DNA of 62,933 bases, counting the filler, from Nemertoderma westbladi (Eukaryota > Animalia > Xenacoelomorpha), in the NCBI GenBank assembly GCA_032718475.1. It is 3 parts of 3 records of this genome, joined end to end, with 100 filler letters (N's around TTAATTAATTAA, not from the genome) between each part and the next. Parts side by side here need not be neighbours in the genome. Positions count along the whole stretch, not along the records: positions 1 to 25,781 come from JAUCBJ010004293.1; 2 more parts are not named here. The stretch is one strand, 5' to 3'. The notes below the pieces were generated by a model that was not told the origin of the DNA, ran no database searches, and was given only the letters and a program-made list of their open reading frames with translations. Positions 1 to 52,688 of the stretch are shown piece by piece. The first letter of the stretch is position 1. Each line of letters opens with the position of its first letter. The position numbers and the translations under genes are program-made.

Positions 1-99
1 GATTAAGAATAATTTTGGGCTTCCCCAAATCAATATACACCAAATATTCACAATAATTATACACGATAATATAAATCCCTACGGTATATTATTTAATAA

Positions 100-1453
100 C
101 CCACTGTTCGCTCAGAATTTTAGCCTACCTAATGTTCCCAGATTTTCCCTCAGTCCCAGTCTTAGTGCCGTAGTGTCGGTGTCGGTCGACCCTGTCGCAT
201 GTCCGTTCCACCCCTCACGAACCCCGAAGGGAACGATCATCGAGAACCAGCACGGCTTGGCTAAGGGTCGGTCCAGTCGGTAGACTCTGTCGCGTATCCG
301 TACCACCCCTCTCGAACCCCGAAGGGTTCGGTCATCGAGAACCAGTACGGCTTGGCTAGGAGTCTGTCGTGTCGGTGGACCCGTTCGCGTGTCCGTTCCA
401 CCCCTCACGAACCCCGAAGGGTTCGATCATCGAGAACCAGAACGGCTTGGCTAGGGGTCCGTCGGTTCATCACAAAAACCCAACCACCTAGGCTTTCCGA
501 GTCCGTTTCAGGCTCGTAGTCGCTTCGGCAGCCGAGAAACTGCTCCGAACAGTCGGTAGGCCAGTAGAGTCTAGTCGAGTCTAGTCCTTTGTCTTTCGAC
601 CCCGTCGCGTGTCCGTTCCACCCCTCACGAACCCCGAAGGGTTCGATCATCGAGAACCAGTACAGCTTGGCTAAGGGGTCTGTCGTCGGTTCCCGTCGCA
701 AATCCCAGTACAAGCAGTCAGCGTTCCGAGTTCTTTTCAGTCTCGTAGTAGCTGCCGTTGACCAGAGACCGCTAAGGGCAGTTCTCGTCAAACCCGTCCT
801 GTGGCCAGCCCTTTCGCATGTCCGTCCCACCCCTCACGAACCCCGAAGGGATCGGTCATCGAGAACCAGTACGGCTTAGGTCAGGGGGCAGTCGTTAGTT
901 GGCCACCCGTTCGCGTGTCCGCTCCACCCCTCACGAACCCCGGGGTTCGATCATCGAGAACCAGAACGGCTTGGCTACTAAGGGGCCGTCGGTGCCCGTC
1001 GCAAATCCCTGACGCAAGCAGTCAGCGGTCCGAGTTCTTTTCAGTCTCGTAATGGCTGCTGTTGGCCAGGGACCGCTAAGGGCAGTCCTTGTCCTTTAGG
1101 CCTGGCGCATTACCAAATCCACCCCTACAGGCAGCAGGAAGTTGGCCAGGGCCTAATAGTACTCAGGCTAACCTGAATACTGCTTGCATTTTCCATCCCC
1201 CCCTGGCCCTTATAACTATGAAATTATTCCCGTACCCTGTAAGTTGCCCCAAAGTTCGCCCATAAATCGCCCCCAGTTTATTGAATGTGCCCAAAACCCA
1301 TGGTCCCGCACCCAGTAGTAATATCGGAATAATCAATTTTAATAAAATACAAAAATATTCAACTCGCGTTATGGAAAGTTGAAATACCGCGAACAGGGAG
1401 TGTTCTCAGCCTAGGCTGAGACGATTGGGGAGTCATTTCAAGAGGGAGTTACA
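100..1453 (-). mobile_element. Probable LTR or terminal region of a retroelement carrying the structured repeats
   Basis: GC-rich block ending at GTTACA (1448-1453), which is TGTAAC on the minus strand, a typical LTR terminus. TATA-like TTATAA at about 1210. No coding domain or second LTR is in the window, and the left boundary is approximate. Confidence 0.35.
187..987 (-). ncRNA. Array of six structured-RNA units (~84 nt): closing helix, inner stem, kink-turn and cUUCGg hairpin
   Basis: Core CCCCTCACGAACCCCGAAGGGTTCGATCATCGAGAACCAG starts at about 211, 306, 401, 621, 830 and 927. The minus strand reads CUC-GAU-GA-U-CGAACCC-UUCG-GGGUUCG-U-GA-GGG. Closing helices differ per copy but stay paired. 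Transcription is inferred, not shown. Confidence 0.55.
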
Positions 1454-1711
1454 GTATCTCAGCCTTGTAAACCAGCACTATTGACTGCTATTAGACCGAA
1501 GTTTAAATTGGTAGTTCGTTTGGTCCAATATATTTGACCGAGTCAACCTACGTTCGAATTTATATGTGTGCAATCCAATCTGATCAAGGATTGTTTTTAT
1601 AGCTTTTGGAGACTGTTGGTACAAATCGTATAACACAGTCTGTATCGTCAGTAGGTTTGGGAGCTACTGTTGGAGCTGGCGGACTGTTGGAGACTATTAT
1701 CGACCACATCT

Positions 1712-2606
1712 CGCGAGTTGTTTATATTAACAACATACAGTATCGCGAGTAGTTGTTTATATTAACAGTATACAGTATCGCGGGTAGTTGTTTATATTAA
1801 AAGTATACAGTATCGCGGGTAGTTGTTTATATTAACAGTATACAGTATCGCGGGTACAGTAGTTGTTTATATTAACAGTATACAATATCGCGGGTAGTTG
1901 TTTATATTAACAGTATACAGTATCGCGGGTAGTTGTTTATATTAACAGTATATACAGTATCGCGGGTAGTTGTTTATATTAACAGTATACAGTATCGCGG
2001 GTAGTTGTTTATATTAACAGTATACAGTATCGCGGGTAGTTGTTTATATTAACAGTATACAGTATCGCGGGTAGTTGTTTATATTAACAGTATACAGTAT
2101 CGCGGGTACAGTAGTTGTTTATATTAACAGTATACAATATCGCGGGTAGTTGTTTATATTAACAGTATACAGTATCGCAGGTACAGTAGTTGTTTATATT
2201 AACAGTATACAATATCGCGTGTAGTTGTTTATATTAACAGTATACAGTATTGCGGGTAGTTGTTTATATTAACAGTATATACAGTATCGCGGGTAGTTGT
2301 TTATATTAACAGTATACAGTATCGCGGGTAGTTGTTTATATTAACAGTATACAGTATCATGGGTAGTTGTTTATATTAACAGTATACAGTATCGCGGGTA
2401 GTTGTTTATATTAACAGTATACAGTATCGCGGGTAGTTGTTTACATTAACAGTATACAGTATCGCGGGTAGTTGTTTATATTAACAGTATACAGTATCGC
2501 GGGTAGTTGTTTATATTAACAGTATACAGTATCGCGGGTAGTTGTTTATATGAACAGTATACAGTATCGCGGGTAGTTGTTTATATTACCAGTATACAGT
2601 ATCGCG
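1712..2606. repeat. ~36-bp minisatellite (GTAGTTGTTTATATTAACAGTATACAGTATCGCGG), continuing at 3855-3930
   Basis: More than 20 near-identical tandem units are directly visible. The array resumes after the insertion at 2607-3854. Confidence 0.95.
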
Positions 2607-3854
2607 GGTGGATCTAGGACACTTCCCCCCCGGACACTTCCCCACCGGACACTTCCCCCCCGGACACTTCCCCACCGGACACTTCCCCCCCGGACACTTC
2701 CCCTCCGCCCAAGTAGGACACTTCCCCCCGGACACTCCCCCCCCCCGGACACTTGCCCCCCGGACACTTCCCCCCCAGTTAAAGTGTTAAAATTAATCTG
2801 GGTGCATCAAAGCAATAAACAAAAGTTAAAGATGGTTACAGGACAAGTTGTATCTAGACAAGTTTTTTCAAAATTATAAAAGAAACATTTTTATAGTCAA
2901 ATTTTGTTTGTTTTTCTTTTAATTCCTTTAATTCTTAAACCCCCGCTTCTTTTCTTGGGGGCTGCCGCCCCCAAACCCCCGCTTCTTTTCTTGGGGGCTG
3001 CCGCCCCCAAATCCCCGCTTCTTTTCTTGGGGGCTGCCGCCCCCAAAGCCCCGCTTCTTTTCTTGGAGGTCATCGCCCCCAGACCCCGGCATTTCCCTGA
3101 GTGCCCGTGGTGAAAGATTGAAGTTTTTGAAAGTGAACATTTTGAAATAATTAATTCATGTTTGTATCATCAGATAATAAATTGACTAAGCCTAAAGTAG
3201 GAGCTGTATTGAATGTTAACCAATTTAATATATAAATTACTACAATATTATATAATTCAACAAAATCGTATTAAAAATATTGCAAGTAACCAGGAAATTT
3301 GATATGTTGTGTGTATAATATCTATATAGTATGTATAGTAGTAATATGTATATCAATATGTAATGCTGAACACAGAATACAGGTCGACGCATGTCGATTT
3401 TACCCTGGAGAGGTATAATTTTGATTGCATCAATAATATTCATCCCCATCTGCTACAATTTGAAGAAGACTATTACATAAAAATACCTATAATTAAAACA
3501 ATTAATTATTATAATTCTATAGTTAATAAAAACAGTATATCATTCGGGGGATGGAATTTATAGGTCATCTACTATAATTAATTGTTTAAAGATTAGCAAA
3601 AAATACGATGTAATTGCATTGATAACACCCATCAATAAAACTTGGATATAAAATGTAAAATCGGGATGCAAAAGATCACTTTCTGAGCTACCAAAGTACT
3701 GTAAAATTGGATACAACTTATCTGGATACAAGCGGTCCGTTTACCTTACAAAATGAAAAATACGAATGTGCGAAGTTAAGAACAGTCGGGGGGGGGGGGG
3801 GAGTGTCCTACTTGAGCGGGGGGGAACTGTCCGGGGGGGAAGTGTCCGAACACC
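2607..3854. mobile_element. Non-autonomous TIR element (GGTG...CACC) with 6-bp TSD ATCGCG, inserted in the minisatellite
   Basis: Left end GGTGGATCTAGGACACTTCCCCCCC mirrors right end GGGGGGAAGTGTCCGAACACC. Subterminal GGACACTTCCCC repeats. ATCGCG on both flanks. Internal 36-bp repeat at 2939-3075. Confidence 0.75.
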
Positions 3855-4004
3855 ATCGCGGGTAGTTGTTTATATTAACAGTATATACAGTATCGCGGGT
3901 TGTTGTTTATATTAACAGTATACAGTATCAGTGAGATATTGTATTTCAGCTTCATACTTCGGCTCAGAAATATTGCAAAAAACATATTTTTATAATTTTA
4001 ACCA

Positions 4005-4236
4005 TCCTATTGTCCGGCCTATTGTCCCGCCTTTTGTCCCGCCTATTGTCCCGCCTATTGTTCCGCCTATTGTCCCGCCTATTGCCCCGCATATTGTCCT
4101 GCCTATTAATTGTCCCGCCTATTGGCCCGCCTATTGTCCCGCCTATTATCCCGCCTATTGTCCCACCTATTGTCTGGCCTAATGTCCCACCTATTGTCCG
4201 GCCTAATGTCCCACCTATTGTCCCGCCTATTGTCCG
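4005..4236. repeat. 12-bp tandem repeat (CCTATTGTCCCG)
   Basis: Directly visible. It explains the Pro-rich spurious ORFs here. Confidence 0.9.
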
Positions 4237-4288
4237 TTTATCCTTGCTATAATACGTAATTTTGGATTAACTATAAGAAAGTTTGAGA

Positions 4289-4650
4289 TGTCAGTTATAT
4301 TCGATGAATAATTCAGGGTTGGAGCAAGTTAAATATTATTAATCAAATGTCAAATATAATTACATATATATTTCGGTAGCTCAGCGCTATCATTATCAAT
4401 AAAGTACAAATTCTAATATAAATTGCAGAATTGACTAACGTAACGTACGACTTGTTATCTGTTAAAAATTTCACTAAAAACAGAATAAATGTTGTAACCA
4501 AAAAACAGAAGACATAGGCAGGGAAACGTATAGGGACCGTAGGTGCATATTGGAGAGCCTATCGAAATATATTTATAATTATATTTGTAATTTGATTAAT
4601 AATATTTAACTTGCTCCAACCCAGAATTTTTCATCGTAATATTGGATGTC
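4289..4650. mobile_element. MITE-like element with ~70-bp inverted arms
   Basis: GGGTTGGAGCAAGTTAAATATTATTAATCAAAT (~4316-4349) is mirrored by ATTTGATTAATAATATTTAACTTGCTCCAACCC (~4590-4622). Confidence 0.65.
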
Positions 4651-4694
4651 AACTCAGTGGAAAGACAGCTTAACGATAATTATACTTTATACAG

Positions 4695-7600
4695 GAGATG
4701 AGGACGGCACAATTAGAATAATTGATACGTTCAGTAAAGATCAAACTGAAACAAAGAAAAGTATCGAACAGGTGGAAAGTATATTGAAGAAAACGGAAGA
4801 ATTAAACGAAATTGTTGAGTATATCGGATGGGTTGGTCCCATAAATAAACCATTCCAGGGTAAGATAACTGATATAATTATATCTACTGTTGATGTTCTT
4901 TCAGATAAAGAGAAAGAACTTTACTTTAGACTGGATGCAGATATTTCTGAGTTAACAACCCAGAATCTGGTTAGTATTTGGGGTTTAAATGAAGTTTCAA
5001 CAATAGAAATTGTTAATAAATTCAGAGACATGGGACTTATGATTATGAATATAAGTGGATCAAATACACTGAAACTTCCAAAATTTTTAATTAATTATAT
5101 AAAAGAACAAAAACTGCCCATAGAGATACTGGCGAGAGGCCCAGAAGCATTGGCTGCTTATAAAGCAGCTCTTTCTAAAGGGACTACATGGATACTGAAA
5201 ACCCGGTTAATGTTAGTGGGACAAGAGAGGGCTGGTAAAACTAGTTTGAAGAAGTCCCTTATTGGTCAACCGTTTGATATAAATGAACCAATAACTGATG
5301 GTATTGACTCATCTGCTAACTGTATTATAAATACCGGACAAAACACAGATTGGACCAACATGAAAGAAGAGCCTGAGACAGCTGTTGATGTCGTCATTAC
5401 TAAAGAAATTGCAAAAACAGTTCTAGAAAGAAAACAAATTACAGGTGATGAGTCTGATATTTCTGGAACTTCAGCAATGGGTATTGGTATTGCGACACCC
5501 TCAGTTGCAACATCTTCGTCTTCTACTGATGATCAACCTAAGATTGCTACTTCAACTTCAAGTTATGGTGCTGCGAAAGTTCAAAAGGATAGTTTGTGGA
5601 GGCGGGTAGTTTCAGTATTACCTGGTTTAAAGTCAAAATATAATAGAAGTAAAATAACTAAAAAATCTAGTACAACTTTATTAACTGCTGAGAATGAAAG
5701 TAAACCTATTGAAGAAAATCTTTCTAGGCAACCAATAAGGGAAGCTATGGAAAATGATATTCCTGAAAACATCACAAAGGGAGTAGAGATTATATTGTTA
5801 TCTGGTAAACCCCAAGATATTCTGGCTAAATTTAATGAGGAAGACAGTCGCTTTTCTCTACAGATAGTCGATTTTGGTGGCCAATGTATTTATTACACAA
5901 CCCATCAGATATTTTTGAGCAGACGAGCTATTTATATAATTGTATTTAATCTCTTGGAAAATCTTGAAAAAACTCCAGATATTATTTTCAGATCTGATGA
6001 AAACAATATTAATGAGTTTGTTTTCGGTGAGATTAAGAATATTGAGTTTATTGAATTTTGGTTAAAAAATATTTATTCATTTGGTACAAAACTAGAAGTA
6101 AATTATTGTCCACCTGTTTTTGTAGTTGGAACTCATAAAGGCAGCTTACATGCTGATCCTGATACTCAATCTGTAATAGCAAGTAAAATATTTGAAAAGA
6201 TTAAGACCCATTTGGGTAAATCTTCATATACAGATAATCTAATTAAAGATTACATTGCTATAGAGAATAATAGAGAAATTATATATGGTGGTGGAGAGAA
6301 AGGACTTGAAAATTTACAGGCCGATATTGTCAAGGAAATGGTAAATTTTAAGGAGGAAATACCTTTGCAATATCTAAAATTTGACCAACTTGTGTCTCAA
6401 TTAATAACGGATGGTAAAGTTTATATTGACATCGACTTGCTAGAGATTAATTTAAAGGATATTGATGTTGAAATGGATAACATTGGTTTGAAAACCATGT
6501 TAGAATTTTACCACGATTTGGGTACAATAATTTACTTTGATGATGAATCTCTAAGAGATACTGTTATACTGAGCCCAGAATGGTTGAGTGGAATGTTTAC
6601 CAAAATAATAACTGTAAAAGACAAAATAAAGAAACAACATTTTACGTTCTGGAAGGACCTGGATAACAATGGTATATTACATGAAGAACTCCTTGATTAT
6701 CTTTGGGAAGGCGTTCTTGATAAAAAACAATTTATGTTGAATATTCTAGAACGTTTTGATTTATTATGTGAACGAGTTTTACCAAGAACCGAAAGAACAT
6801 TGCAAGATGATGTAAAGTTGGCTTATTATGTACCATGCCGCCTTAAATCTGTTAGATATACTCCATTCACACCAAGACAATGTAAAGTTGAATTTTATAT
6901 TACATTCAAGAGTTTCTTACCGCAAGGATTGTACTACCGTTTAATTAAGAGAACTATTGATTTGTCCTACATTGTTGGTAATAGAGTAATTCAACCTAAA
7001 CTTTACCACAGAGTTGCTCAAATATTTTTAGATTTTAATCATCAGGTAATTTTGGAAAGATCTTCTATTTCATTAAATTGGATTAAAGTTCATGTAGTTA
7101 GATCTGAGATGTTTAGTTTGGGCGATGAACAAACTGAAAGTAAACTTGCACCAGATCCGGATATTGTTAATAAAGTAAATCATTTTATTAATACTTCATT
7201 GAAGGAAATTATTACCCAAATGAGATTTAAAAATATTTCATTTGATTTCGAAATAAAATGTGAATGTAATGCTAAATGCGATCAACACAGATTACTTGAC
7301 TGCAATGAAGAAGGGTGTTTTCACTTTGTTAAACTGGCTGATATTTTATCAAATGATTTTCTTGAATGTCAATTTAATAACTCTGTTAGAAGTCGGTTTA
7401 TTAGTGGAAAATTCCCTGTTGTTGGGAGATTTAGCTCACATTGGTTAAACATTACAACTAACCAAGATGACCTTATTGATAGACTGGAAATCTCAGAGTT
7501 ACTTGTATACTTAGCAAGTAAGGGGGCTATATCAAAGGAAGTTTTAGCTGTTATTGAATCTAAGTCGAATTTGATGAGTAAGAATAAGATTTTGTTGGAG

Positions 7601-8116
7601 TCAATAAAATGGGGATCAGAAAATAATTACAAAGTATTTATTGAAGCATTATATGTAACCAATCAACCGCTTTTGGTTGAAATTTTGCATGAAAAAATCA
7701 AAATGGAAGACCAAATGTTCCCTGATATTCTAACAAAGTATAAATATATGTTAATGAAAAATTTAGAACAAACTAAATTTGTGGCACAGCTTCTTGTTAG
7801 CCGAAACGTTATAAGTAAATCTATCATAGAAATAATCGAAAGTAAAGAATCGATAGATAGTAAGAATGTTGTACTTATAAACGCAGTAATGAAAAGATCT
7901 TACAAGGATTTTCTATCTTTTTGTAAATGTCTTCGTCTCACCAACCAACATCATTTAGCTGATACTCTAGAGGAAGCAACCAGTTATGATGCGGATATTG
8001 TAGACATTACCGATCAAGCTGATGAAGTTGCTGTTATAGATAATAGTAATCAAGGTGGAGAGGCCGCTGGGGTTATAGACGTTACCAATCAACCGGTGGA
8101 GAGGCTGCTGTTATAG
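4695..8116 (+). CDS. ROCO-family protein: Roc GTPase + COR + Cys/His-rich segment + two CARD/death-fold-like domains (large exon; 5' end probably spliced)
   Basis: 1156-aa ORF. Pre-Roc helix PIEILARGPEALAAY, P-loop GQERAGKTS (~5219), switch II DFGGQ (~5870), G4-like VGTHK. COR motifs LEFYHDLGTII, VILSPEWL, ERFDLL and YYVPC. Two ~90-aa helical repeats ending TNQxxLxxxL. Splice acceptor TTTATACAG at 4694. The ORF ATG at 4646 lies at the edge of a MITE. Confidence 0.88.
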
Positions 8117-9189: not shown

Positions 9190-10036
9190 CCGGATCCACA
9201 GCTGGTCAATAAAGTGAAGTGTAATCTTAATAATTCATTGCAGGAATTCCTTAAACAAATTCGAATAAAAAACATTTTCGTTTAGTTTTCAGATAAAATG
9301 TCAATGTAATTCAAAATGCGAACAGCACAATGAAATTAACTGTAGAGAAGAAATTTGCTTCCATTTTATTAAAATCGATGAAAATATTTCAGATAATAAA
9401 GTCAAATGTAAGTTTCATAAACATATGGAAAGCAACTTAATAAGAGAAAAATATACAGGTGATTTAAGTTCAAATTGGAAGAAATTAGCGTCTAAGGAGA
9501 ATGAACTTCTAGATAAACTAGAAATATTGGAACTTATAATTTTCTTAGAAGCTAAGCGAACTTTGTCTCGGGATGTTTTATCTATAATTAACTCGAAACC
9601 AAATGTATTCAGTAAAATAAAGACTTTATTGGAGGCAATAAAATGGGGTACAGAAAATAATTACGAAATATTTATTGAAGGATTAAAGGAAACATATCAA
9701 ACTCATATAGTAAATATTTTAGAGGATAAAACAACAGATGATGATAAAATGTTTCCGTTGATACTAACTAAATATAAGTTTGTTTTAGTTAATAGAATCG
9801 AACCAAACTTGGTAATAAAATTACTTTGTAGGAAACAAGTGTTTAGGGATTCTATAGCTGAATCAATCAATAGTAAAGAATCCACAGTGGCAAAGAATAA
9901 TGAACTGGTCAACGCGATAATTAAAAGGTCATACAACGATTTTCTTACATTCTGTCAATGTCTGAGAGACACAAATCAGGGTCAAATAGCTGATATCCTG
10001 ACTACAGCTGTACATAATTTAGATGATTTAGTCTAA
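9190..10036 (+). CDS. Diverged duplicate of the ROCO C-terminal module (COR end, Cys/His segment, CARD-CARD); alternative exon or pseudogenic segment
   Basis: Translates PDPQLVNKVKCNLNNSLQE...(+1 frameshift ~9277)...IKCQCNSKCEQH...CFHFIK, then the 203-aa ORF. Colinear with PDPDIVNKVNHFINTSLKE...IKCECNAKCDQH...CFHFVK...CKCLRLTNQ at 7151-7975. Confidence 0.75.
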
Positions 10037-27255: not shown

Positions 27256-29553
27256 ATATTATTTAGATTATCTAATAATAAAAAAAATAAAATGTTTTTT
27301 ACAATATATTTTGTTACATTATGTCAACTTAACAGCGTTCTGGTGAATTACTCATAACGCTGCAAAGTACTACTTTGCAGCGTTGCGGCCTATAGGACGG
27401 AACGTTGCAAAACAACTTCAATTACCGTATTCCAGAATGTATTATTTCCATTTATGTTAATGATTGCAGCTTTATTATCCAATTTGCAGTGACGGGACTA
27501 GCTACTGGATGTAAATAATTGTTTAACATGTACTGTAATCCATTATGGCGAAACGTCCAATAGAAGACACTAAATTTAACCAAAGAAAGTGACGACAGTG
27601 TTCAGTAAAACTGAACGGACACAGACGGTGAATAAGTTTGCTTCAGTCGACTATAGTCAAGATGGATTAATGATTTATCACATCCAAGCAGGAGATAACT
27701 TCCAATAAACTTTAATTAGATTTAAATGTATAATTAATACTGTGTACCAGTGTACCTGTTAATAAATTTCACTTATAATCGATATAGTACATGATTAAAA
27801 TGTATAAATGAGCAACCATAAAATCCTTTCTTCACAAACCGAACGCTGATAAGTTGACATAATGTAACAAAATTACATACATCATTGCTTGCAAAGGTCA
27901 CTTTTCAGCGTTAAAGACCCTTGTTTATTGATGTAAATCTCCCTCGCTGCGCTCGCTCGGTACATAAATAAACTCGGGTCATAACGCTGCAAAGTGCTAC
28001 TTTGCACACAATGATGTAAATAGTTATTAGATTTAATTAATACGGGATAAAATTCACATTATAATAGGCCTATAGATAATTGTTACATTAGGGTAAGAGG
28101 CAAAACGTCTACATTTATGTCTCCAATATATGAATTACTGGTGGGGGATGGAATTCGTAGGGGTCGTAAGATGTATTTAGGCTAGTCTATAAACTAATCC
28201 CCCACCAATGACAAAATGTTAATAATGAAGTGTATAGTACGCGAAATAGTGATAAGTTATCCTTCCTAGAGGTACCGAACGGTCATACATTATTTCTTAA
28301 AAAAGCACAAATTGTAATCGCTTGTCAGTGAGAATTTATTAAAACCTGTTGTTATTTACAGTATTGTTATTTACAATTTAACATATTTTGTTTGCACAAG
28401 TTTCGATCTTCAAACGGCTGAGACATCCAAATAGTGGCGCAAATTGACCATTAGTGAAAAGGTATTGTTTATTGTTTTGGGTAGAAAACACCGCCACTAA
28501 TGTTTGAAATTTAAATAAATTAATTTTTTAAATCATCTAAAAAACACATATTTTGTGTTTCCGGTCACTTTGCGCCATTAACTCGAGAAATCACATCCGC
28601 GTTTTTAACTGTCGGTCATAAGTGATAATAATTATCTATAACGAAAGACTTAAAATCGTCTAAAAACTACTTATTGTACAACTCATAATCAGAAATTACA
28701 CTAAAAGTGAATTGTATGCGTTATTGTAGATATATATATTTTTTAAAATATCTGCAAAGGCATTTTTGGCTGTAGAATTAAATTGATAATAAATACTATT
28801 GTTTACCGCTAGGGGTGCAAGTTAAATTCATAAGAACTAAAGGCAATTTCCTTGTAATTGTTTATTTTGGGCCATTATGCCTAGATTGGGCCATTTTGTT
28901 CTAGGTGGGCCATATTTGCCCTAAGAGGACGTGTACCTTTTGGGCCATCGTAGTAGGATTAGGGCCATTGCTCCAAGCCCAAGGCCATTTAAGGGCCATT
29001 GGACCTTTAAAAGGTGGCCCTAATAGTGGGAAAGCTTATATATATATATATATTGCAGCTGCAATGCGGCATGCCGACAGAAGATTCTTTCTGATATTTC
29101 TCTAGTCTAAATCCCATACAAGATCTATTTGAGATCTATCTTGCAAGCAGTTAAGTTAGAATTTCAATGTCACTCAACTAAACCCTATTCAATCCAGTAT
29201 CAAAAACTCCCTTCAACCAGAACCCACCCACCCTTGCAACTTGGTTGGATGTGTGAAGCAATATGAAAGGTTGGGGGGATTTACGGCTGATGAGAGTCCT
29301 GAGACGATTTACGGCTGATGAGAGTTTACTGAAGGTCCACTAAATGCGAATTCAATATTCTTTATGAACTTTAGATTCCCCACTGTCGAAATCCCCGCAA
29401 TAGTCCTAATAATATTAATTGTATAAAATTTTATAGAAATTGTATAGTAGCTTATAATTGAGATTATAGTTTGTGTATAATAACAAATATATATTGTTTA
29501 ATATACCAAGTAAATATTCGCTGTGGTGGTGATTTTTTAATTTGAAAAGTATT

Positions 29554-30741
29554 ATGATGAATAATTTTGCAAACCATTCTCTATCAAATGACCTTAATAA
29601 TTCGGCAGAGGTTATTAAAGGGATATTATATTCGATTATATTTATTATGGGTCTAAGTATGTGCTCATTTGGATTGTATGTCGTTGTATCTGCATCAAAA
29701 AGACAACTTCGCATGATTGACTATCTAGTTTGCAACCTCCTTGTAGCAGACTTAGTCTACATTATCGGCAGTCCATTTATGGGTATAACAGCTGTGCTGC
29801 GTTCATGGATATTTGGAGATGTGGTGTGCCGCATAGTATATTCTCTGGATGTGTTTTCTATGTCAGCTAGTATTTTCACTCTCATACTTATGAGTATTGA
29901 ACGTTACCAAGTCATGGTCCAGGGTAAATCAGGAAAGGTGGTGAACAAATGGCCACTTGTTTGTTTATGGTTAATGAGTTTAGTTTTGGCATTGCCATTT
30001 GGGATTTTTACTAAGAACATGGAAAGTAGATTGTCGCCAGATAAGTGGGACTGCAGAGGAGATTGGCCTAGTGTAAATCATCCTTGGGATACCTATAAAG
30101 GCTATTTGACATGCCTGTGTTTCCTAATTTATATTCTACCTTTATGTTCCATCAGTATGGCATATTGGGCTATCTTGCGCAAAATAAACAACAATTTGAA
30201 TACATGCTTTGAACTGACTCATTTGCATTTGCCTGATGAAGACAAATTACATGAAGGTGTCAGTTTACCTGAAACTGGACAATCGGAAAGATTACAGAAG
30301 GAATTTGATCCTAGCGGTTGCATAATGAAATCAGAAGAACCATCATATATTTCCACGCCGACAACCAGAGGAATCTACCAAAATGGCGCAATAATAACTA
30401 ACCATCAACACAGCAGAAGCAAAGCAATAATGAATATCAAACATATGGACCAACAAACAAGTCGAATGGTTATAGCTATGATTATTTCATTTGCACTTTG
30501 TTATTTGGCCTTTTGGATTTTCCAAATGTTGAATTTTTTTTATCCAAAAGCATTTATAGGAGTGACTAATGAACATATGGGCCTAATACAAAACGTTGTT
30601 GTATTTTCAACTTATAGCAACACTCTGGTAGATCCTGTACTTTGTTTCATTTTATGCAGCAAATACCGACAATTTGTATTCCACATTGATTGCAGTTGCA
30701 TTGTACGGCCATGCCAACAACCCCAACCCCAACATCAATAA
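29554..30741 (+). CDS. Intronless class A (rhodopsin-like) peptide GPCR, urotensin-II receptor-like (somatostatin/opioid/MCH receptor group)
   Basis: Seven hydrophobic segments and N-terminal NxS sites. TM2 NLLVADLVY, ECL1 WIFGDVVC, TM3 SLDVFSMSASIFTLILMSIERY, TM6 FWIFQML, TM7 TYSN. These closely recall UTS2R motifs (recognised from memory, not searched). Confidence 0.88.
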   Translation: MMNNFANHSLSNDLNNSAEVIKGILYSIIFIMGLSMCSFGLYVVVSASKRQLRMIDYLVCNLLVADLVYIIGSPFMGITAVLRSWIFGDVVCRIVYSLDVFSMSASIFTLILMSIERYQVMVQGKSGKVVNKWPLVCLWLMSLVLALPFGIFTKNMESRLSPDKWDCRGDWPSVNHPWDTYKGYLTCLCFLIYILPLCSISMAYWAILRKINNNLNTCFELTHLHLPDEDKLHEGVSLPETGQSERLQKEFDPSGCIMKSEEPSYISTPTTRGIYQNGAIITNHQHSRSKAIMNIKHMDQQTSRMVIAMIISFALCYLAFWIFQMLNFFYPKAFIGVTNEHMGLIQNVVVFSTYSNTLVDPVLCFILCSKYRQFVFHIDCSCIVRPCQQPQPQHQ

Positions 30742-32749: not shown

Positions 32750-35440
32750 ATGGAGTAGTAGTATACTTATGGTACAGCATCCTGCGAACTATTGACATTC
32801 CAACCGTGGTTAACGCCTGTCTAATAACAATGGTGCAATGGTTAGTCTCACATACCGTATCTGTTACTTCGGAACTAGTAGTAAAGCACTATCTGGCTGA
32901 GGAGATATATGCGGCCAATGGTATTCTATTTGATTTATTTGGTTTTAAGATTATTAATAGGCAGGATACTGCGGATCGCACTGCGGCTGCTGCTAATTTC
33001 TGAGACATTTGGGAAAAACTATGTGAGTTGGATTGTAGTAAGAGGATTCCTTTAATTGCTGTGTCAGCAATTGATGCGTTGTCCCTTCCACGTTTTTGGG
33101 TTCTGGTGGTGGAGTCATTACTGGTACCGGAACTGGTGGGAACAACCATGGGTCAAGTGTTTTGGACACCGATTGTATGTTGCGTCTAATCAGCTTGAAT
33201 ATAGATTGAATGTAGATGAATATAGATGAATATAGATTGATTAAATTCACAAGTCCATTGTAGAGAAACTTAAAAATAATAATGATAAAATTAAATTAAT
33301 GGAATCCCTGCTGCCACCACAGTCGTCATCTTACCTCGTAGCTCCACCAGGAGTTCAGTGGTTATTGTACAGCGCAGTGGTCCGCGCATCACAGTTCCAT
33401 GCCGGGGACTGATTACTGCCCACCAGCAATCACCACTTGCTGGTGTTCGCGGAGCCAATGGTGATACTATTGCTGGTTCCCCGAGTGCTGGCTTCCGCGT
33501 TGGTGGGACAGGTTCTGGAGCGTCGCGTATACCAGGGAGTTTGAAACGGCCCCGCCTCAACTCCGCTGATAATTCCGATATAAATCCTAGGGATGATCCG
33601 AATAACCCATGGATGAAAGTCAGGCCTCATAGCCGGGCGTGTATGGAAGGGACTAAGAGCCCTACCGGTACCGGGAGCAGTGGAGGGCTGCGGTTGCGTG
33701 CTGCTGTTGGCCCCCCTCCAGTGATTTATGTATGCAGATTGGACAACGAGATTACGGCGAAGGATCTATCAGAGGATGTCTCTTGGAGTCATGGTGGAAG
33801 AAGGTGCAATTGCTAAGGTTTCTCCCCCCAGTTCTTGGTCGACCAGTGTTATGGAACTCGCCTTTGTTCCGGCTGAGAGGAGTATTCGTTCAAAAGTGGA
33901 TTAACTATTCCAAAGGTCATATAAATCAGTGGAGGGGTAGGTGCAATTGCTAAGCTTTCTCCATCCAGTTCTTGGTTGACAAGTGTCAGGATTAAGGTCA
34001 GTAAATCTGATTTTGATAATGTTATGGAACTCGCCTTTGTTCCGGCTGAGAGGAGTATTCGTTCAAAAGTGGATTAACTATTCCAAAGGTCATATAAATC
34101 AGTGGAGGGGTAATAATGTTGAAAGGACCTCAAATGTGTAACCTTGTATTGATATATAGTTCATACTTACTATTTTTTTATATATATTTTTCATTTTCTT
34201 ATATTTTCTTAACCAGTTTAATACTTCTTGTTTAATAATAATTAATTAACAATGGCTACCCAAACCAACTCATCCGCTTTACATCGCACTATAGCTATGG
34301 TATCATATAATAGCATAGGTTTTGGAGCTGATAAAGTTGATTTTATAAAGTGTTTGTTGCCTGGTGCAGATATTGTCTGCTTGCAGGAGCATTAACTGAA
34401 GCAAAATTTAGGTTATATTAGTAAAGAATTTCCTAGTTTTCGTTGTTTTCATGTGCCTGCGCAATATATTAATGATTCGCAATCAGGGCATCCATCAGAT
34501 GGTCTGAGTATGCTAATTAATCCTGCCTTGGCTAGTTTCGCTTCCAAATGTGAATCAAATAACTCACGATTGCAAGGTGTAAAGTTCACTTTACTGGATA
34601 AATCGTTTGTAGTTCTTACTGTTTATTTCCCAGTAGATAGACGGTCTAACACTGTATCTGATGATTTTCTAATATTAATTAATGATTTATGTAATCTAAT
34701 TTCTACAATGAACACACCAAACATAATTATAGCTGGTGATTTTAATTCTGACTTTTTAAGGAATACTGCACATGTTAATTTGGTGTCATCATTTGTTAGG
34801 GATAATAATCTAGAATTGTTATGGAATAAATTTCCAATTGATTACTCTTATATGCAAGTAGTAGACAATAATGTGTCCACTAGTATAATTGACCATTTTA
34901 TTATGACACAACTGTTTAAATAATTGCGCAGAGGGTGGTGTGGTTATTCATAATGGTGCAAACATGTCTAACCATAGCCCAGTTTACGTTAAATTCGCTG
35001 TTTAAGATTTTGGGGCAGACCCAGTGGTCAGTAATGGGTCAAGTGGCTGTCCAAGTTACAGTCGTGCAAACGAGGAGCAAAGAATGAATTTTAAAAATAT
35101 AATAATTTACAGGATTTAAATTTCCAATGTGCTGATTGCGATATTCTATTTAGTGTTGACAGTTTACATGTTGGTAATATTGATACTTTTGCGTTTAATG
35201 TACTAGAAGCTTTGATATTGATGTACAATCTCTGCCTAAGCCTTTACCTGGTTGGAATAAACATGTGCGATCCTATCACGATAAAGCTATTTTTTGGCAT
35301 AATGTATTGGGTGTCCGCTGAAAGGCCCAATGCGTCTCAGAGCAATTTGTTTCATGTTAGTAGACGTGCAAACTTACTGTACAATATAAATATGCTGTTA
35401 GATGATTAAAAGGTAAAAACAGATCAAATTCGCGGCGCAT
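32750..35440 (+). mobile_element. Decayed LINE (CR1/L2-like): ORF1 remnant and APE endonuclease, RT missing
   Basis: From 34252: SYNSIG, DIVCLQEH*, VYFP, AGDFNSD, IDHF, SNHSPV (APE motifs) with stops. Broken ORF1-like frames upstream. Internal duplication at 33800-34110. Confidence 0.8.
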
Positions 35441-38299: not shown

Positions 38300-39377
38300 T
38301 AATAAAAAACAAAATTTAAAATCACTAAACATTAAAATTTACATCAGCTTAAAAAAAAAATTAAAAAGAAATACGAATAAAATGAACTGTACATACCGTA
38401 GAACCCAGAAACGTTTATTACGAGCGACCGATTAGTGGTCGATTAAATTTGCATATTGGTAGGAAATCGTGGTTCTTGAGCTTGGTCGCAAAACTGACAA
38501 GTGTTCTGGAATCTACTATATCTTCTGGCAAATCATTCCAGACTGGCACAACACGGCTGGTAAATGAGTTTTTAGATATAATTAATCTACATCTAGGTAC
38601 ATTTAACTTGTGAGAGTGGCCACGCAGACCCGGACGGTTAGTATAGCTAAATAGCGCACCAAAATCTAAATCAACTAAATTTCTCTCTATACTGAAAAGT
38701 AACTTTAGATCAAAAATATATCGTCGGACTTCCAGCGGTTGTAAATTAAGGTGTTGTATTCTATGTATGTACGGTTTGTAACTAATATTGCAACGGCTAT
38801 ACAATCTACGTGTAAAATATCGCTGGACACTCTCCACAAGATCAATACTGCCTAATGAAAAAGGCGACCATACTGGTGTACAGTATTCTAGAATCGGTCT
38901 AACGTATGATTTATAGGCTGTTAATATTGCACCTTTATTGCTAGTCTTAAAGCAACGAAATATCATATTAGTTATGTTAAAAGCCTTTGTACACTGTTGT
39001 TTACAGTATTTATCAAACTTCAAATCCGCAGATATAATAATACCTAAATCTTTACATTTCGTCACCTTCTTTATCACTTTATTGCCTAGCACATAATTGT
39101 AATTATTATTATTTGCACCTATATGTAGAACCATACATTTATCCGGGGCTATATTTAGCTGCCAAAGGTTGGCCCAGGTCTCTAACCTAGAGAGGCTAGC
39201 GTTCAGACTATGACTTTCATTGGACGGACCATATAGCTTGACATCATCGGCAAATAAACGGCAGGACACGTTATCCCTGTCCAAAAGCGGTGGTAAGTCG
39301 TTTATGTATATCAGGAACAAAACCGGTCCGAGGACACTGCCCTGTATTGTTCCGTATTGTATCATATTATTATGCAA
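38300..39377 (-). mobile_element. 5'-truncated CR1-like LINE, RT C-terminal half plus 3' UTR
   Basis: 319-aa open frame with QGSVLGPVLFLIYINDL, LFADDVKL, KDLGI, YVRPILEY, ESVQR, LRGH, WNDLP. Confidence 0.92.
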
Positions 39378-43732: not shown

Positions 43733-46345
43733 GAGTTAGAACAATTGCGAACCAAATAATTTTTTTTCTAAAATCATGGGTCGCAATTGTCCGGATCCAG
43801 ATAAAAAAAAACGATGTGATGTAAATCATAGATCATTATAACCATAGAGTTCAAAATATTTATATCAATAGCTAGTAAAAAAATAAAATTATTAAATAAA
43901 ATTATCCAAAACAAACAAGAGTAAAAGCAATAAATAATGTATAAACAATGTTAACAATATTCGCACAGTAGGCGATGCTAATTTTTAGAGCAACACATAA
44001 AACAATTAATTTAATTGTAAGCATTTAATAAGCCAGCCTGCTTTATGAAATGATTGGCTGAATTTAATCGTGATTCTTTAGAATATATTAGCTAAATAAT
44101 TTCGTTGAGGTGTTGACATGATAAATTCATATTTCAGTATCAATACTATCGGCATATGGTAAATTTTAATAATTTTTACAAATTGGGTTGCCTCCACACG
44201 TAAAAATATATTACTATTAAATCACTAATTTCCTGTTAATATCTCTGCCTTTCATTAATCCTCTGTGCTCCTTTAGGTTGGGGTGGTGCAGATTAAGAGG
44301 GCGGTTTAAGCGAGGGGGGGGGGGGGGGGGGGGGGGGTGAAGGGGAACTTTCCTCTCTTCTTTGATTTATTCTTATTGGTGGTTTGGTTAAATTTCTTAT
44401 TTATTTATTGAAATTTCTTAAGTACCGATTTTGGGATAGAATTTCTCAATTTTAATCTTTATCTGATAACTGAGCCTCGTCCTCCGCGAAGGCCCCACGA
44501 ACGTGTCTGTCATGTCGTATGGGTGGTCTTGGGTTCTCTTCTATTACATAAACGGCCCCTGGTAACTTAACCTGACAACATATACTGTACTTCAACTAAG
44601 TCAAGCATTACTGGTGACGTGCATGATGGGTTCCTAAATTCGTTCCACTTTAAATTGAAGTCGCATTTGTAGTTCAGTGGGGCAATTTAGCCCTACAGAA
44701 TAATTTATTCCATTATTCCCAGCTTCCAACCCGTTATTCCTATAGGTTCTAACCATGGAATACTAAATATACGCATATATGTATTCGTTTAGTATTCCAT
44801 ATTCAAACCAATTATTCCTTCTGGACATTAGCCATCTTTATATTCAAACATTTTCCTTATAGTATATTCAGAGAGATATAATATATACTCCCAATCTGGT
44901 ATAAGAAGCCGTGGGTCAACAGCGAAACATATTACAGTTGGTGTTATCAGTAGGCATAAAAAGTTAATTATACAACTGCAAGTAGTAATATTTCCAAGAG
45001 GGTAAACGCGAAGAAAGTAAGAGGGCATAGAAATTAGCTCATATGGCGGCGGTATACAGCAGTAGTATACTTATTGTAAGATAAACAGGAGCCATTAATG
45101 CAATAAATACAAACATTATCAATTTTATCTATCAATAAATCAATGCAAATTACTAAAAACGAAATTACGTATTTTGCGATTTCGACATTAAGGCTATTCC
45201 TCAATTGGTTAACCTATTTGTAACTCGCTTCAGATTGTAATACAGCGGTAATTAAGATAGATTTCGTGGAATCTCCTCCCACATGTTTTACTGAAACTCC
45301 TTTCCGGTTGAGTAACATAAGGACTGCACGAGTTCCTTAATTATCCCGAAAGATCAATACGGCCTAATGAATCGAAAGACGGAAAACGGAAGGGCCACAG
45401 AGCCTTCGTTGAATCAATTAGAGCAAAGCATTTATCCCAGTCAAATAAACCAATATTTGCTGTCTGTATCGAATGCGAGGAAAAGCTCTCATTCTGAGAC
45501 AGGGGGGGAAACTGGACGCAAAACCCGCCTTGGCGAATTAATATCCCGCCTCATTGTTAAATTCTCAATTTAGGGAAAGGAGCAGGTTACAGTGGCACGT
45601 TATTTTAACCAAAACAATAAACTAAACACAATAGAACAGGTTACAGTTTTATTTTTGAGAGTAATCATCTGTTATTTGCGTCCAATTTCCCCTGGATAGG
45701 GATGAATTTTAATTGCGTCCAGTTTCCCCCCCTATCTGCTCATTCTGGGTGCCTCTCGGTGGTACAGTACTAAGTACCATTCGTCACGTTTCTGTCGTTA
45801 GATAGCGCTCTTACATTAACCACAGCGGGTTAATTATTTACCACAATAAATCACCCCTTATAGTCCTACTCATACACATGCTATCCATAATAAAGATCCA
45901 TAAATAAGGCTTATATTTTCTGTGTTTATTGTCGGATCAGTGTTCAGAGGCAAATGTGTCATTATCGAAAAACATTTCCAAATGACACATTTTATGACAA
46001 TTTTCACATTTTTAAGTAACAAAAAATGTTTAAATTGACATTGACATCATTAGCACTTGAGGTTACGGATGAATTTTAGGTTGCGGCTTGACGAATGTAC
46101 CGTGTAGTAGTTCATAAAACAATTCCATCAGTTAAACATCACAATTGTTTGAAAAGTTTGCAGTTATGTGAACAACACCAATTGTGCGCATTAATTATTA
46201 TTACGCCAAGCACATCCATATAATTATGCCACATTGTACGTACAGTGCTGCCCTCATATGGCAGAACATCCTATCTCCTAAAACATCATTTTGAGTAAAT
46301 TGATGAAACGTAAAACAGCGTGGCAAAAGGTACTAATTTATTTAA

Positions 46346-47718
46346 CCCTATGAAACCCGGGGGGGGGGGGGGGGGTGGGGGCGTCAATATGACCCCCCCC
46401 CCCCCCCGCGGTTTTTTTATTATAATTCTAAAACAAACGCAGTTGGAAATCTGAAATTTTATGACTTTTCCTAAAAATCTATTGTCTTCCTAGTAGTGAA
46501 AACCGTTTTCAAAAATATTGGGTAGTTATCGAATTATAACACCAATTTTTAACCCTCTTTTGGCACTTTTTTTGAGACGTTTTTTGAAAATTACATTTCA
46601 TTAAATATTAATTGTAACATCTCTATTTTTGATTTACACCGGTTTTTTGGTGTTCGCAATTGGATGGAATTCATATAAATTTATTTAGAAATTTCAAACT
46701 TGTTTTTTTCGGCGGGTGCCAAATTTTGGTGCTAGCACGTAATTTTGAAAATCCATTTAATAGATAAAATTGCTTTTGACAATTTATTTCTTGCGTTTTA
46801 GAGGTTTATGGCTGTTCTGAATTCAATGGAATATATAATTATCGAACTAGACATCTCAAACTTATATTTTTCGGAAGTGGGTGTAAAATGTGGTGCTAGC
46901 ACCAAATTTTGATAACCATCAAATATATCAATTGATTGTGTCACCTTGTTTCTTGCGTTATACGGGTTTGTTAGGGTTCTGAATTCAATGGAATCAGTAA
47001 AAATATCATAAAAGTTTTCAAACTTGTATTTTTCGCCGGTGGGTGAGAATTGATTGTGCCAGCACCAAATTTTGGAAAATTAGTAAATTTGATCAGTAGA
47101 TAGTATCATCTTGTTTCTTGCGTTATACGGGTTTATGATGGTCCTGAATCCGATGGAATCAATAAAAACAGCACTGGAAATCGCAAACTTGTACTTTTTG
47201 GTGATGGGTACGAAATTTGGTGCTAGCACTAAAATTTGCCAAATTACGCCGAAAAATACAAGTAGCAATGATCTGGCATATTAGAAATGTATAAGTGAAT
47301 TAAAAATTTTGTGTTCTAACTGAAAAGTGCTGGTTACTTGTTTTTTTTCATTTTTTTCCTACGCAGAGAGGACTAAACAACCATTTATGGTAATCATATC
47401 ATTTTAAATATTTTCCAGTGTATTTTGCGCCCCAGAAAACCTGTATTGAAAAACAATTAGCCGAAAAATGTAACTTTCAAATTTTGTGAAAATTGTGCAC
47501 TACTTGTAATTTTGGTGCTGTAATATAACCACCCCAGAACATTTTTCGAATTTTTTTTGGTCGGATCCAGACTAGTGATACCTACGTACAAACAAAAAAT
47601 CAGACGTTTTCGTTAATATTTGTAGCTTTTAGAGGGAGGGGGGGGGGGGGGTCAATATGACCCCCCCCCCCCCCCCCCCGGCATTTGTACAGCAATTTAT
47701 AACCCGGTACTAATAGGG
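46346..47718 (+). mobile_element. piggyBac-like non-autonomous element
   Basis: TTAA|CCCTAT...ATAGGG|TTAA. Internal degenerate repeats each contain TGGTGCTAGCAC. Subterminal G-run/C-run hairpins. Confidence 0.88.
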
Positions 47719-47891
47719 TTAAGGGCGGTACATATTGATGTTAAAATGTAGTTTATTTCATCAAAATGGTTGCAAATATATAACAATTACAATATGATTG
47801 AATTCATTCGAAGAAAAATGAGGTTGAAAATGGAAAAGTCAGTAATAAGTCAATTTGCCATTGAAAAAATATCTGTAGGACATTTTGCCTA

Positions 47892-49278: not shown

Positions 49279-51106
49279 GATATTTCAGGCAGCTAGAGTT
49301 TTAATGTTTAGCTAGAAGTTTTGAAAAATATTATTATTTATTATTACCATTATTATTATTATTGATTATTATCACCCCACATATGGCGAAAATTTTACAC
49401 AAGGACATAAAGAATTGACCACTCACGCTTTCAGAATAACGTCACACCTGAAAAGCGAGCAGATAACAGAAAGAGTGGTAAAACCGGGAAATTCCTCTCC
49501 CTCGAAGTTGTGATTCCGGCCTCCAGCTAATGATGGAGTGCATCAGCATGCATTCTTACCATTCCTGGGAGACTTTAATGCATGTCTGCATCTCCTACAT
49601 CGCCCTAGGTCTATAGTGATACTGTTAATCAAAATTGCGTCCTTCTTCAGGATTTCATCTCTGGAAATGGATTGTTTCGGCTGGAACCCAGTTCAAGAAG
49701 TGAACTGGAAAGCTACTGTATGGACTCATAGTGGACCTTCCCAGATAGACCATATTCTGTTTAGGAGGATATACATATTTTTTTATTTGATAATTTAAAA
49801 TAAAGTCAGACCCAACATGGACCTGCTGCCATGACCATCACCTGCCTGGCAAGCATTGCGCACAGCGATCACCAAACTACGCTCTACCGATCCATCTTCT
49901 TTAAGGAACAAGGAACACAAAGAACACACAGTTAAAAGGGACTGCCAAACATGCGATGGTTGAGTAATCTGCACATACGTGATTGCGACGAGATACGGTC
50001 CCGACTGAATAATTAGAGGCCAACCCTCCACGAGTCTCAACCCGGAACTTCCACTAGTGGATGGACTGTCTCTTCTTCCGCAACTTCCGATACCTTGGAT
50101 CTCCACCATTTGGGCCATTTACAGACCCCCGAAGAACGTCCCAAAGAGCGAAAAACACCGGTCGACGAAACGCAAAATTCGAACCCAAGGCCAAGAGTCC
50201 AAAGAAGAAACAAAAGAAAAAACGTGATAACTGATAAATCTTTCACGTGCATTATTATACTGCAGTAAATCATAGTTGATCTGATATGAAACTTGTGTAT
50301 AATAGATTTGATATAGTTATATACTGTTTGATATAAAATATTTAAGAAAAAAACGTCATAAATGAAAAGTTAAAATTATTGAAGGGGGGAGGGGGAGGCT
50401 ATCTCAGCTTCATTCCCTGGACGCCAGAAGGGCACGCTACGCCTCTGACGGCAGGGCCTAGAAATAAAGGTGACGGTAGACAGTACTGCTTGGGATGTAA
50501 TAAAATATACTACTGTAGTTAGTGAACGTATGTACAGTAGACTCCCCGAACCTGGTACAATGCGAGGCCTTAAATTAGCGACCTATTCACAGTCTCTCCA
50601 AATATAGACCCATATTACGACCACGGATACCTGCAAAGTGCAGTGTTTGGACTCCTTATGTGGCGGATAATAAACTGTCCAGATAATAAAGCGCTAAACA
50701 GAAGCTTAGACAATTTTGCAATCGCAAGCATATGACGAATGTATTGTAAATAATAGTTATGATCAAGAGAGCTGAAGAAATAATAACTAATCAAACCAAC
50801 ATTCCATTTCTTTGATATGTTATGCGGATTGAAGCTCTCATTCTAATATTTGTTAGATCTTACCGTGAAAGAAATGTTCTACTCTATTTAGAATGTCTAC
50901 AGACCTTAGTTTAGTACATCTATTTTTCGCCTTAGATCATTACAATTACAGTAGGGGATAAGTGTTTATATTCGGGACATGAAGTCCCTACCGCACACAA
51001 CACTCTCACCAATTTCTTGATGGGGATTGGGTTGTACCAAAAACCTTGTGCCGATTTTCAGCACTTTCAGTGGACCAAGTACATGAACAGGAGAACAAAC
51101 TATTAA

Positions 51107-52688
51107 CCCTATTAGTACCGGGCTATAAAATGTTGTACAAATACCGGGGGAGGGTCATATTGACCCCCCCCCCCCCCCCCCTAAAATCTACAAATATTTA
51201 CGAAAACGTCTGATTTTTTGTTTGTACGTAGGTATCACTTGTCTGGATCCGACCGAAAAAAAAAATTTTCGAAAAAATGTACTGGGGTGGTTATATTGCA
51301 CCAAAATTACAAGTAGTACACAATTTTCACCAAATTTGAAGGTTACATTTTCGGCTAGAATTATTTTTCAATACAGGTTTTCTGGGGTGCAAAATACATT
51401 GGAAAATATTAAAAAATGATATGATTACTATAAATGGCTGTTTAGTCCTCTCTGCGTAGGAAAAAAATGAAAAAAACAAGTAACCAGCACTTTTCAGATA
51501 GAACACAAAATTTTTAATTTACTTATACGATGCTATAAATTCACATTTTCAGGTTTTCGAAGGCGCTGATTCTAATGGAATACATTTCTAATATGCCAGA
51601 TCATTGCTACTTGTATTTCTCGGCGTAATTTGGCAAATTTTGGTGCTAGCACCAAATTTCGTACCCATCACCAAAAAGTACAAGTTTGCGATGTCCAGTG
51701 CTGTTTTTAATGATTCCATCGGATTCAGGACCCTCATAAACCCGTATAACGCAAGAAACAAGGTGATACTATCTACTTATCAATTTGCATATTTTCCAAA
51801 ATTTTGTGCTGGCACAACAATTTTCACCCACCGGCGAAAAATACAAGTTTGAGAACTCTTATGAAATTTTTACTGATTCTATTGAATTCAGAACCTTCAC
51901 AAACCCGTATAACGCAAGAAACAAGGTGACACAATCAATTGATATATTTGATGCTTTTCAAAATTTGGTGCTAGCACCACATTTTGCACCCACATCCGAA
52001 AAATACAAGTTTAAAATGTCTAGTTCGATAATTATATTTTCCATTGAATTCAGAACAGCCATAAACCTCTAAAACGCAAGAAATAAATTGTCACAAGCAA
52101 TTCTATCTATTGAATAGATTTTCAAAATTTCGTGCTAGCACTAAAATTTGCACACAGCACCGAAAAATACAAGTTTGATAAGCTTGGTGCAACTCGTATA
52201 TATTTCTTCGAATCCAGAAACCCAAAAAACCCCAATTGCGTAAAAAACAAGTTTCAAACGATCAATTTACAAAATTGACTTATTTCAAAATTTGGTGCTG
52301 GCACCAAAATTTGGCACCCACCGAAAAAAAACAAGTTTGAAATTTCTAAATCAATTTATATGAATTCCATCAAATTTCTAACAACAAAAACCGGTGTAAA
52401 TCAAAAATAGAGATGTTACAATTCATATTTAATTAAATGTAATTTTCAAAAAACGTCTCAAAAAAAGTGCCAAAAGTAGGGTTAAAAAATGGTGCTATAA
52501 CTCGAAAAGTATCCAATATTTTTGAAAACGGTTTTCACTACTAGGAAGACAATAGATTTTTAGGAAAAGTCATAAAATTTCAGATTCCCAACTTCGTTTG
52601 TTTCAGAATTATAATAAAAAAACCACGGGGGGTTCATATTGACACCCCCCCCACCCCCCCCCCCCCCCCCCCCCCGGGTTTAATAGGG
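51107..52688 (-). mobile_element. Longer copy of the piggyBac-like element, opposite orientation
   Basis: TTAA|CCCTATTAGTACCGGG...TAATAGGG|TTAA. Reverse complement of 46346-47718 with about one extra internal repeat unit. Confidence 0.88.

Follow-up and report, generated by a model that had tools for sequence, protein, structure and literature searches.

The minus strand of positions 180–1095 of the window (the whole 62.9-kb stretch of Nemertoderma westbladi DNA that was analyzed) carries an array of nine small RNA modules, of which six are of a K-turn type (A) and the other three belong to a second type (B). The array lies in what is very likely the long terminal repeat (LTR) of an LTR retrotransposon, and its RNA structure is probably under selection. 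It forms an island of 59% GC within AT-rich sequence of 36% GC. The modular RNA appears to be undescribed, its setting in an LTR is of a known kind, and the LTR family itself may already be catalogued in Dfam or Repbase.

Architecture of the array

All six minus-strand units described in the initial annotation were confirmed at their positions (Table 1). Each of these A units starts with a closing helix and a UA/GA loop, followed in this order by two G-C pairs, a 4x4 loop with CAAG opposite ACAY, a 6-bp helix with additional G.U pairs, the K-turn and a 7-bp stem capped by cUUCGg. The previously proposed anatomy was recovered in every unit, as each of them bears the parts of the standard K-turn definition, i.e., C-helix, 3-nt bulge (here GAU), tandem G.A and A.G pairs and NC helix (PMC5689011). 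Likewise, the cUUCGg loop is retained in five units and lost via a 2-nt gap in the unit at 901–987, and stem mismatches are found in units 1 and 5, as had been noted. The basal AGUA/GAA bulged-G loop of A6 is a full loop E-type motif. One contig of set X6 has Watson-Crick pairs in an A unit in place of the basal UA/GA loop, and this loop is therefore dispensable in some copies. The A units are 87–98% identical to each other. A descriptor combining the K-turn with UUCG gave five matches in the 62.9-kb window, all of them inside the array and none on the plus strand, and a covariance model built from the A units retrieved from the window the six units alone (87–110 bits, next-best hit at 11.7 bits).

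The initial annotation, correct with respect to the six units, had overlooked the three B modules as well as the LTR context. From 5′ to 3′, the modules are ordered B-A-A, B-A and B-A-A-A. Common to B1, B2 and B3 is an apical helix over a UA/GA loop, with an end of the form C-UGAAA-N-G, and the basal loop plus the two G-C pairs of B2 and B3 are identical to those of the A units. The B apex is a GAAA tetraloop in two copies, a T-loop being the better reading for all three; B1 has a break in the U-A pair needed for closing a GAAA tetraloop, and the T-loop fits it better. The hexamer ACCGAC in the linkers occurs nine times against a Markov mean of 1.2 and a maximum of 6 in 1000, these copies being non-independent.

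Module number differs between copies of the element. Contig joints at 233–948, 358–982, 367–988 and 385–819, each seen in one or two contigs, represent copies with fewer units. Separately, contigs from X4 and X6 diverge from the window at 529 and one X6 contig does so at 860 (sites within 505–529 and 819–860), which may reflect a second subfamily with other modules; K-turn and 4x4 loop are kept in the one unit seen.

Table 1. Modules of the array, the surrounding putative LTR and candidate transcript signals (positions in the window; signals deduced from sequence).
Feature	Position	Strand	Description
Inferred LTR of abundant LTR retroelement	1..1395	minus	5′ end TGTT at 1395; 3′ end outside the window, past position 1
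Candidate poly(A) signal AATAAA	1277..1282	minus	near the LTR 5′ end
TATAA	1214	minus	candidate signal
Multi-stem region	1104..1243	minus	upstream of the array; main-helix pair probabilities 0.77–0.95
B3, second-type module	993..1084	minus	long irregular rod; z −4.9
A6, K-turn module	901..987	minus	UUCG lost; basal loop full AGUA/GAA bulged-G
A5, K-turn module	808..889	minus	most diverged; weak fold, z +0.55
B2, second-type module	692..779	minus	basal and apical UA/GA loops; GAAA/T-loop-like apex
A4, K-turn module	598..680	minus	z −2.6
B1, second-type module	465..550	minus	diverged; apical helix with UGAAA loop; two UA/GA loops
A3, K-turn module	377..460	minus	best-folding copy; z −3.4
A2, K-turn module	282..365	minus	3b:3n C:A; compensatory change in the inner helix
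A1, K-turn module	187..270	minus	all parts of the A unit, from the closing helix to UUCG
Linkers	180..998	minus	single-stranded, with ACCGAC x9 (starts 993, 690, 557, 466, 376, 281, 272, 186, 180)
ATTAAA followed by U/G-rich stretch	92..97	minus	candidate poly(A) signal or AT-rich promoter
TATAA	61	minus	candidate signal

Evidence for structure at the RNA level

The closing helices quoted in the initial annotation are indeed paired, and with arm windows chosen by the analyst the summed helix length of the cognate closing arms (33) was reached by only 2 of 720 arm pairings. In the alignment of the A units, 150 of 162 cells are paired (92.6%), compared to 32–56% in slid-register controls. This value was reached by 5 of 500 shuffles and the covariation score of 0.109 by 11 of 500, where 5–25% of neutral alignments reach 5/500 on these two measures. 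The covariation claimed before is genuine yet thin, with only three pairs changed on both sides (reached by 45 of 500 shuffles) among six close paralogues; A2 has a compensatory change in its inner helix. It is also true that the GA/GA dinucleotides are kept in all six copies. However, the invariance of these four columns is by itself non-significant (chance P 0.37), because the copies are so similar to each other.

Single-unit folding gave z-scores of −3.4, −2.6, −2.0, −1.4 and +0.55 for five A units and of +0.89 for unit 1, the latter folded with its 5′ closing arm cut short. Z-scores are weak in two of six A and two of three B units, nearest-neighbour energies giving no credit for K-turns. 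The proposal of a structured minus-strand RNA is borne out by strand comparison, as the minus-strand RNA folds better than the plus-strand RNA in all nine modules, by 3–12 kcal/mol, while for the six A units folded as DNA the strand difference is below 1.5 kcal/mol. Moreover, all four one-sided pair changes result in G.U on the minus strand. A single-stranded-DNA GAA-triloop was considered as well and rejected, since the plus-strand stem closes a 4-nt loop and A-unit DNA folds without strand preference.

The host element

From contig matching against sequencing runs, positions 1–1395 of the window are a single abundant repeat with a sharp edge at 1395. At least half of the sampled words derived from the array are present in five sequencing runs, and contig coverage is deep across 1–1396, with contigs extending past position 1, in one case by 182 nt. 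At the other side, matches of contigs from X1, X2 and X4 (three runs, two samples) end at 1395/1396 and continue into differing flanks, contig depth dropping to about zero by 1398–1400; X3 gave no contigs there. One flank recurs in three samples (X1, X4 and X6), a run of 7–8 C which on the minus strand reads as a G-rich, polypurine-tract-like run immediately 5′ of TGTT. The sequence past this C-run is common to X4 and X6 and in the majority among seven contigs in X1; a single shared insertion site is a less probable alternative to a polypurine tract. The contigs of X6 are used here purely as sequence evidence, an RNA origin of this set being a guess. The TGTT start agrees with the integrase motif TGTTRNR (PMC3601003) over its initial four letters, letters 5–7 deviating from it.

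The sharp edge, the TGTT start and the polypurine-tract-like flank in a subset of contigs argue for reading 1395 as the 5′ end of an LTR, and the assignment of the repeat to an LTR retrotransposon, deduced from these sequence features, appears highly probable. This would also bear out the retroelement setting supposed in the initial annotation. The window's own flank differs from the C-run tract and, therefore, the window copy is likely a 5′ or solo LTR. Its length is at least 1.4 kb and probably exceeds 1.58 kb. The strand that folds would be the LTR sense strand, the sense being set independently by the polypurine-tract-like flank. Shared contigs reach a depth of 12,267 and edge contigs of 7–470, which suggests many copies, roughly hundreds or more, the summed contig depth in X1 (4e4–1.9e5) not being a copy number. 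The LTR is known from one end and the array, with the internal part, the proteins and the far LTR end lying outside the sequence seen. No second piece of it is present elsewhere in the 62.9-kb window, and the reverse transcriptase frames of the window resemble LINE fragments and are unconnected to the array LTR. Two further observations concern the margins. The summed contig depth of positions 1–100 in X1 and X4 exceeds that of much of the array, a weak hint of wider subfamily sharing as expected of R/U5, and a distinct abundant repeat with a short palindrome starts precisely at the LTR edge (1396–1473), with tandem units of about 35 nt in contigs.

Within the LTR, the array is placed with some preference in U3 or R, and hence at the 3′ end of the RNA, because a leader of about 1.3 kb with 14 AUGs on the minus strand and a folding energy of about −470 kcal/mol would be hard to scan (predicted with a 120-nt span at −467 kcal/mol for the minus versus −393 kcal/mol for the plus strand). 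The full-length RNA would contain the array under any partition into U3, R and U5.

K-turn class and comparison with known motifs

In all six units, the K-turn positions −1b:−1n and 4b:4n are C:G. A U.U pair in most copies had been reported and is found at 3b:3n in four units, the other two having C:U and C:A. The Kt-7/ribosomal pattern favours folding in Mg2+, whereas box C/D K-turns keep G:C at 4b:4n (PMC5689011), and C at 3b, the letter of both 3b variants in the array, permits K-turn folding (PMC4382518). Going by these published rules, the K-turns are predicted to fold in Mg2+ without protein. As most K-turns also bind L7Ae-family proteins (PMC5689011), binding of 15.5K is possible. With Kt-7 and riboswitch K-turns, the array shares the 3-nt bulge, the tandem G.A/A.G pairs and C:G at −1b:−1n, and its 4b:4n C:G is Kt-7-like. 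With the box C/D K-turn it has in common the U:U at 3b:3n of four units, but neither the 4b:4n G:C nor guide sequences nor a second box pair, and it consists of six copies in a mobile element. Consequently, the earlier label of a box C/D-type K-turn is replaced here by the Kt-7/ribosomal pattern.

An Rfam search of window positions 1–5000 at E up to 5 returned five weak matches, none of them within 130–1400, in line with the earlier description of the array as a candidate undescribed RNA system. A box C/D K-turn or snoRNA (RUGAUGA plus CUGA) was accordingly dismissed, given 4b:4n C:G in all units, U:U in just four and no Rfam snoRNA match in the array. SECIS elements have a GA quartet followed by a helix of 11–12 bp and apical adenosines. 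This candidate was also discarded, as the helix in the array has 7 bp with a UUCG cap and no Rfam SECIS match was obtained.

The 4x4 loop was compared with the 11-nt GAAA tetraloop receptor, which is characterized by C2:G10, A8, an AA platform, a U3.A8 pair and a closing G6:U7 wobble, G:C at the closing position costing 4.33 kcal/mol (PMC2275092). Its letters agree with C2:G10, A8 and the AA platform in five of six units. Position 3, however, is C in five of six, so that U3.A8 is absent, and the closing pair is G:C or G.A throughout, in place of the G6:U7 wobble. No receptor variant like the 4x4 loop was found in the available passages of PMC11571812 and PMC11381326, the supplements of which list many variants.

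Proposed role and alternative explanations

By analogy, we tentatively propose that the modules could together form a cis-element in the genomic RNA, multivalent and self-folding, that serves export, stability and handover to packaging, a reading that may well hold without being the expected outcome. Nine repeated modules would be presented inside the LTR, on the inferred sense strand. The K-turns would fold in Mg2+ without protein and might then be bound by host L7Ae-family proteins (15.5K/Snu13) as the likely K-turn binders, while the UA/GA loops common to A and B could be bound by a host or element protein. The bound proteins would get the unspliced RNA exported, stabilized and passed to packaging, and recombination between units would likely multiply or remove modules.

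Several retroelement RNAs can be compared. The RcRE of HERV-K is located in the LTR. So is the RxRE, found in the 3′ LTR of HTLV-1 (PMC7551171). Like the cis-element proposed here, both are large, structured, LTR-encoded RNAs acting in cis on genomic RNA. In contrast to the array, RxRE and RcRE are single multibranch folds of vertebrate retroviruses with a virus-coded binder, whereas the array strings together nine modules of repeated types, standard K-turns among them, in a genome of invertebrate type and has no demonstrated sequence likeness to them. The CTE of MPMV and the SPRE are likewise post-transcriptional elements of retroelements (PMC4338338, PMC8579622), and the CTE gains function through its duplicated internal-loop binding site (PMC4338338). 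Unlike the array, CTE and SPRE stand outside a modular LTR array and the available descriptions of them, on which the comparison with the CTE is based, do not feature a K-turn. A role in export or stability is proposed by analogy with RxRE, RcRE and CTE; the array has no demonstrated sequence likeness to any export element and is not taken to be a member of these families. Among invertebrate LTR elements, Cer1 requires a dedicated export route (PMC10309623). For packaging, the core encapsidation signal of MoMuLV, described as an A-minor K-turn, is comparable as a kinked retroelement stem-loop (PMC7599994); it is, however, single, non-standard and situated downstream of the LTR, whereas the array repeats K-turns of the standard kind within the LTR itself. 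In plants, LTR retrozymes carry a functional RNA motif in their LTRs (PMC4918200), as would be the case here, but the array is devoid of a hammerhead or other known ribozyme.

An alternative use of the same structures, considered unlikely, is a docking scaffold for dimerization or packaging, in which the GAAA-type loop of B would insert into the 4x4 loop of A, either within one genome or between two, and the K-turns would be architectural. Every group starts with one B followed by one to three A, and the shortest form among the contigs retains one B and one A, which deletion between repeats would also yield. The 4x4 loop resembles the 11-nt receptor in its C:G, AA and key A and shares the geometry of its G.A closure with the selected R(1) receptor (PMC2275092), and the K-turns match the protein-free folding pattern. 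Yet the U of the receptor's U.A is C in five of six units, the closing G.U is absent, the broken U-A pair of B1 fits a T-loop better, and an LTR-borne signal would also sit on spliced and solo-LTR transcripts. Carried further, this would give a natural self-assembling RNA, with K-turn arms bearing a new tetraloop-receptor class, docking-loop arms and a module number tuned by recombination, able to fold the genome, with no protein involved, into a particle that is compact or dimeric, which is decidedly unlikely. To be taken no more seriously is a variable U3 repeat of the ordinary kind, neutral or enhancer-like, that arose by amplification of a GC-rich hairpin, its complementarity being restored through template switching at quasi-palindromes with no selection acting on the RNA. 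U3 is the variable portion of LTRs, and the near-identity of the copies, the P of 0.37 for GA/GA invariance and the 12 of 162 cells left unpaired would all fit such an origin. Arguing against it, one strand alone combines a perfect K-turn of the standard kind, cUUCGg in register, loop-E-type loops and a further module sharing the basal motif. It is also opposed by the resolution of one-sided changes into G.U on the minus strand in four of four cases and by A-unit DNA folding without strand preference.

It is very improbable that the array lies instead in R/U5 as a 5′ leader, functioning as an IRES or shunt or, along the lines proposed for HTLV-1, as a fold that brings AAUAAA at 1282 close to a cleavage site far away. 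Both AATAAA 1282 and TATAA 1214 are upstream of the array, a 10-bp hairpin is predicted at 1158–1181 inside the multi-stem region, 30–50 nt after TATAA 1214, and the RxRE offers a precedent (PMC7551171). On the other hand, the predicted helices at 1243–1124 span this TATAA, the sole long-range helix with a probability above 0.5 pairs 1395–1385 with 55–45 and not 1282 with the far end, and ATTAAA at 97 with its U/G-rich tail is a simpler poly(A) signal. Least of all do we expect the modules to be a new self-cleaving ribozyme of an LTR-retrozyme-like element, as partly envisaged in the initial annotation. Although plant retrozymes have hammerheads in their LTRs (PMC4918200) and the motif density is ribozyme-like, no Rfam ribozyme family matched at E up to 5 and loose self-made descriptors gave no HDV-like match on either strand, no hairpin-ribozyme loop B and one lone hammerhead-core-like heptamer at 706. 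Nine internal cuts, moreover, would destroy the genomic RNA of an LTR element.

Occurrence elsewhere and significance

Pattern scans of viral contigs resulted in 1, 2 and 0 matches, with locus L001 lying in a phage reading frame without likeness to the window. In a scan of 47 of 64 metagenome parts, at least 120 loci were obtained, all of them single matches, none with the 3′ half of the module and the best with a blastn E of 0.21 versus the element; the pattern was too loose for absence there to prove much. Literature on K-turns together with LTRs or retrotransposons did not include a standard K-turn array in an LTR among the matches listed, at the level of the text given for them, the nearest case among these being the packaging signal of MoMuLV with its non-standard kink (PMC7599994).

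The cis means by which LTR elements of invertebrates export their unspliced RNA, protect it and select it are mostly unknown, and the modules of the array, being small, repeated and built of textbook 3D motifs, lend themselves to synthesis and probing one at a time. Recruitment of 15.5K by the K-turns would mean that a retroelement makes multivalent use of a host protein of the snoRNP and spliceosome; docking between A and B would make the 4x4 loop a new receptor among those found in nature.

Other features of the window

The window as a whole is AT-rich animal-type DNA (36% GC), in which LINE fragments and many satellites accompany a ROCO-CARD gene and a GPCR. An intron-free frame of 1156 aa at 4646–8116 (+) encodes a Roc-COR-CARD-CARD (ROCO) protein and is followed by a 36-bp coding-like repeat and a diverged CARD-bearing frame at 9425–10036 (+), 67% alike. 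A 35-bp minisatellite in two blocks (1716–2609 and 3855–3929) brackets an insert at 2610–3850, which has complementary C-rich/G-rich 15-bp end repeats and resembles a non-autonomous DNA transposon. The GPCR, intron-free and rhodopsin-type, is located at 29542–30741 (+); a protein search at E 1e-30 among proteins of similar length gave no relative. Broken LINE-type endonuclease/reverse transcriptase fragments are found at 34453–34923, 38418–39377, 56694–58203 and 59678–60181. Finally, arrays of a 162–165-bp repeat at 46341–47722 and 51103–52693 form a long inverted pair and are likely the arms of a foldback-type element.
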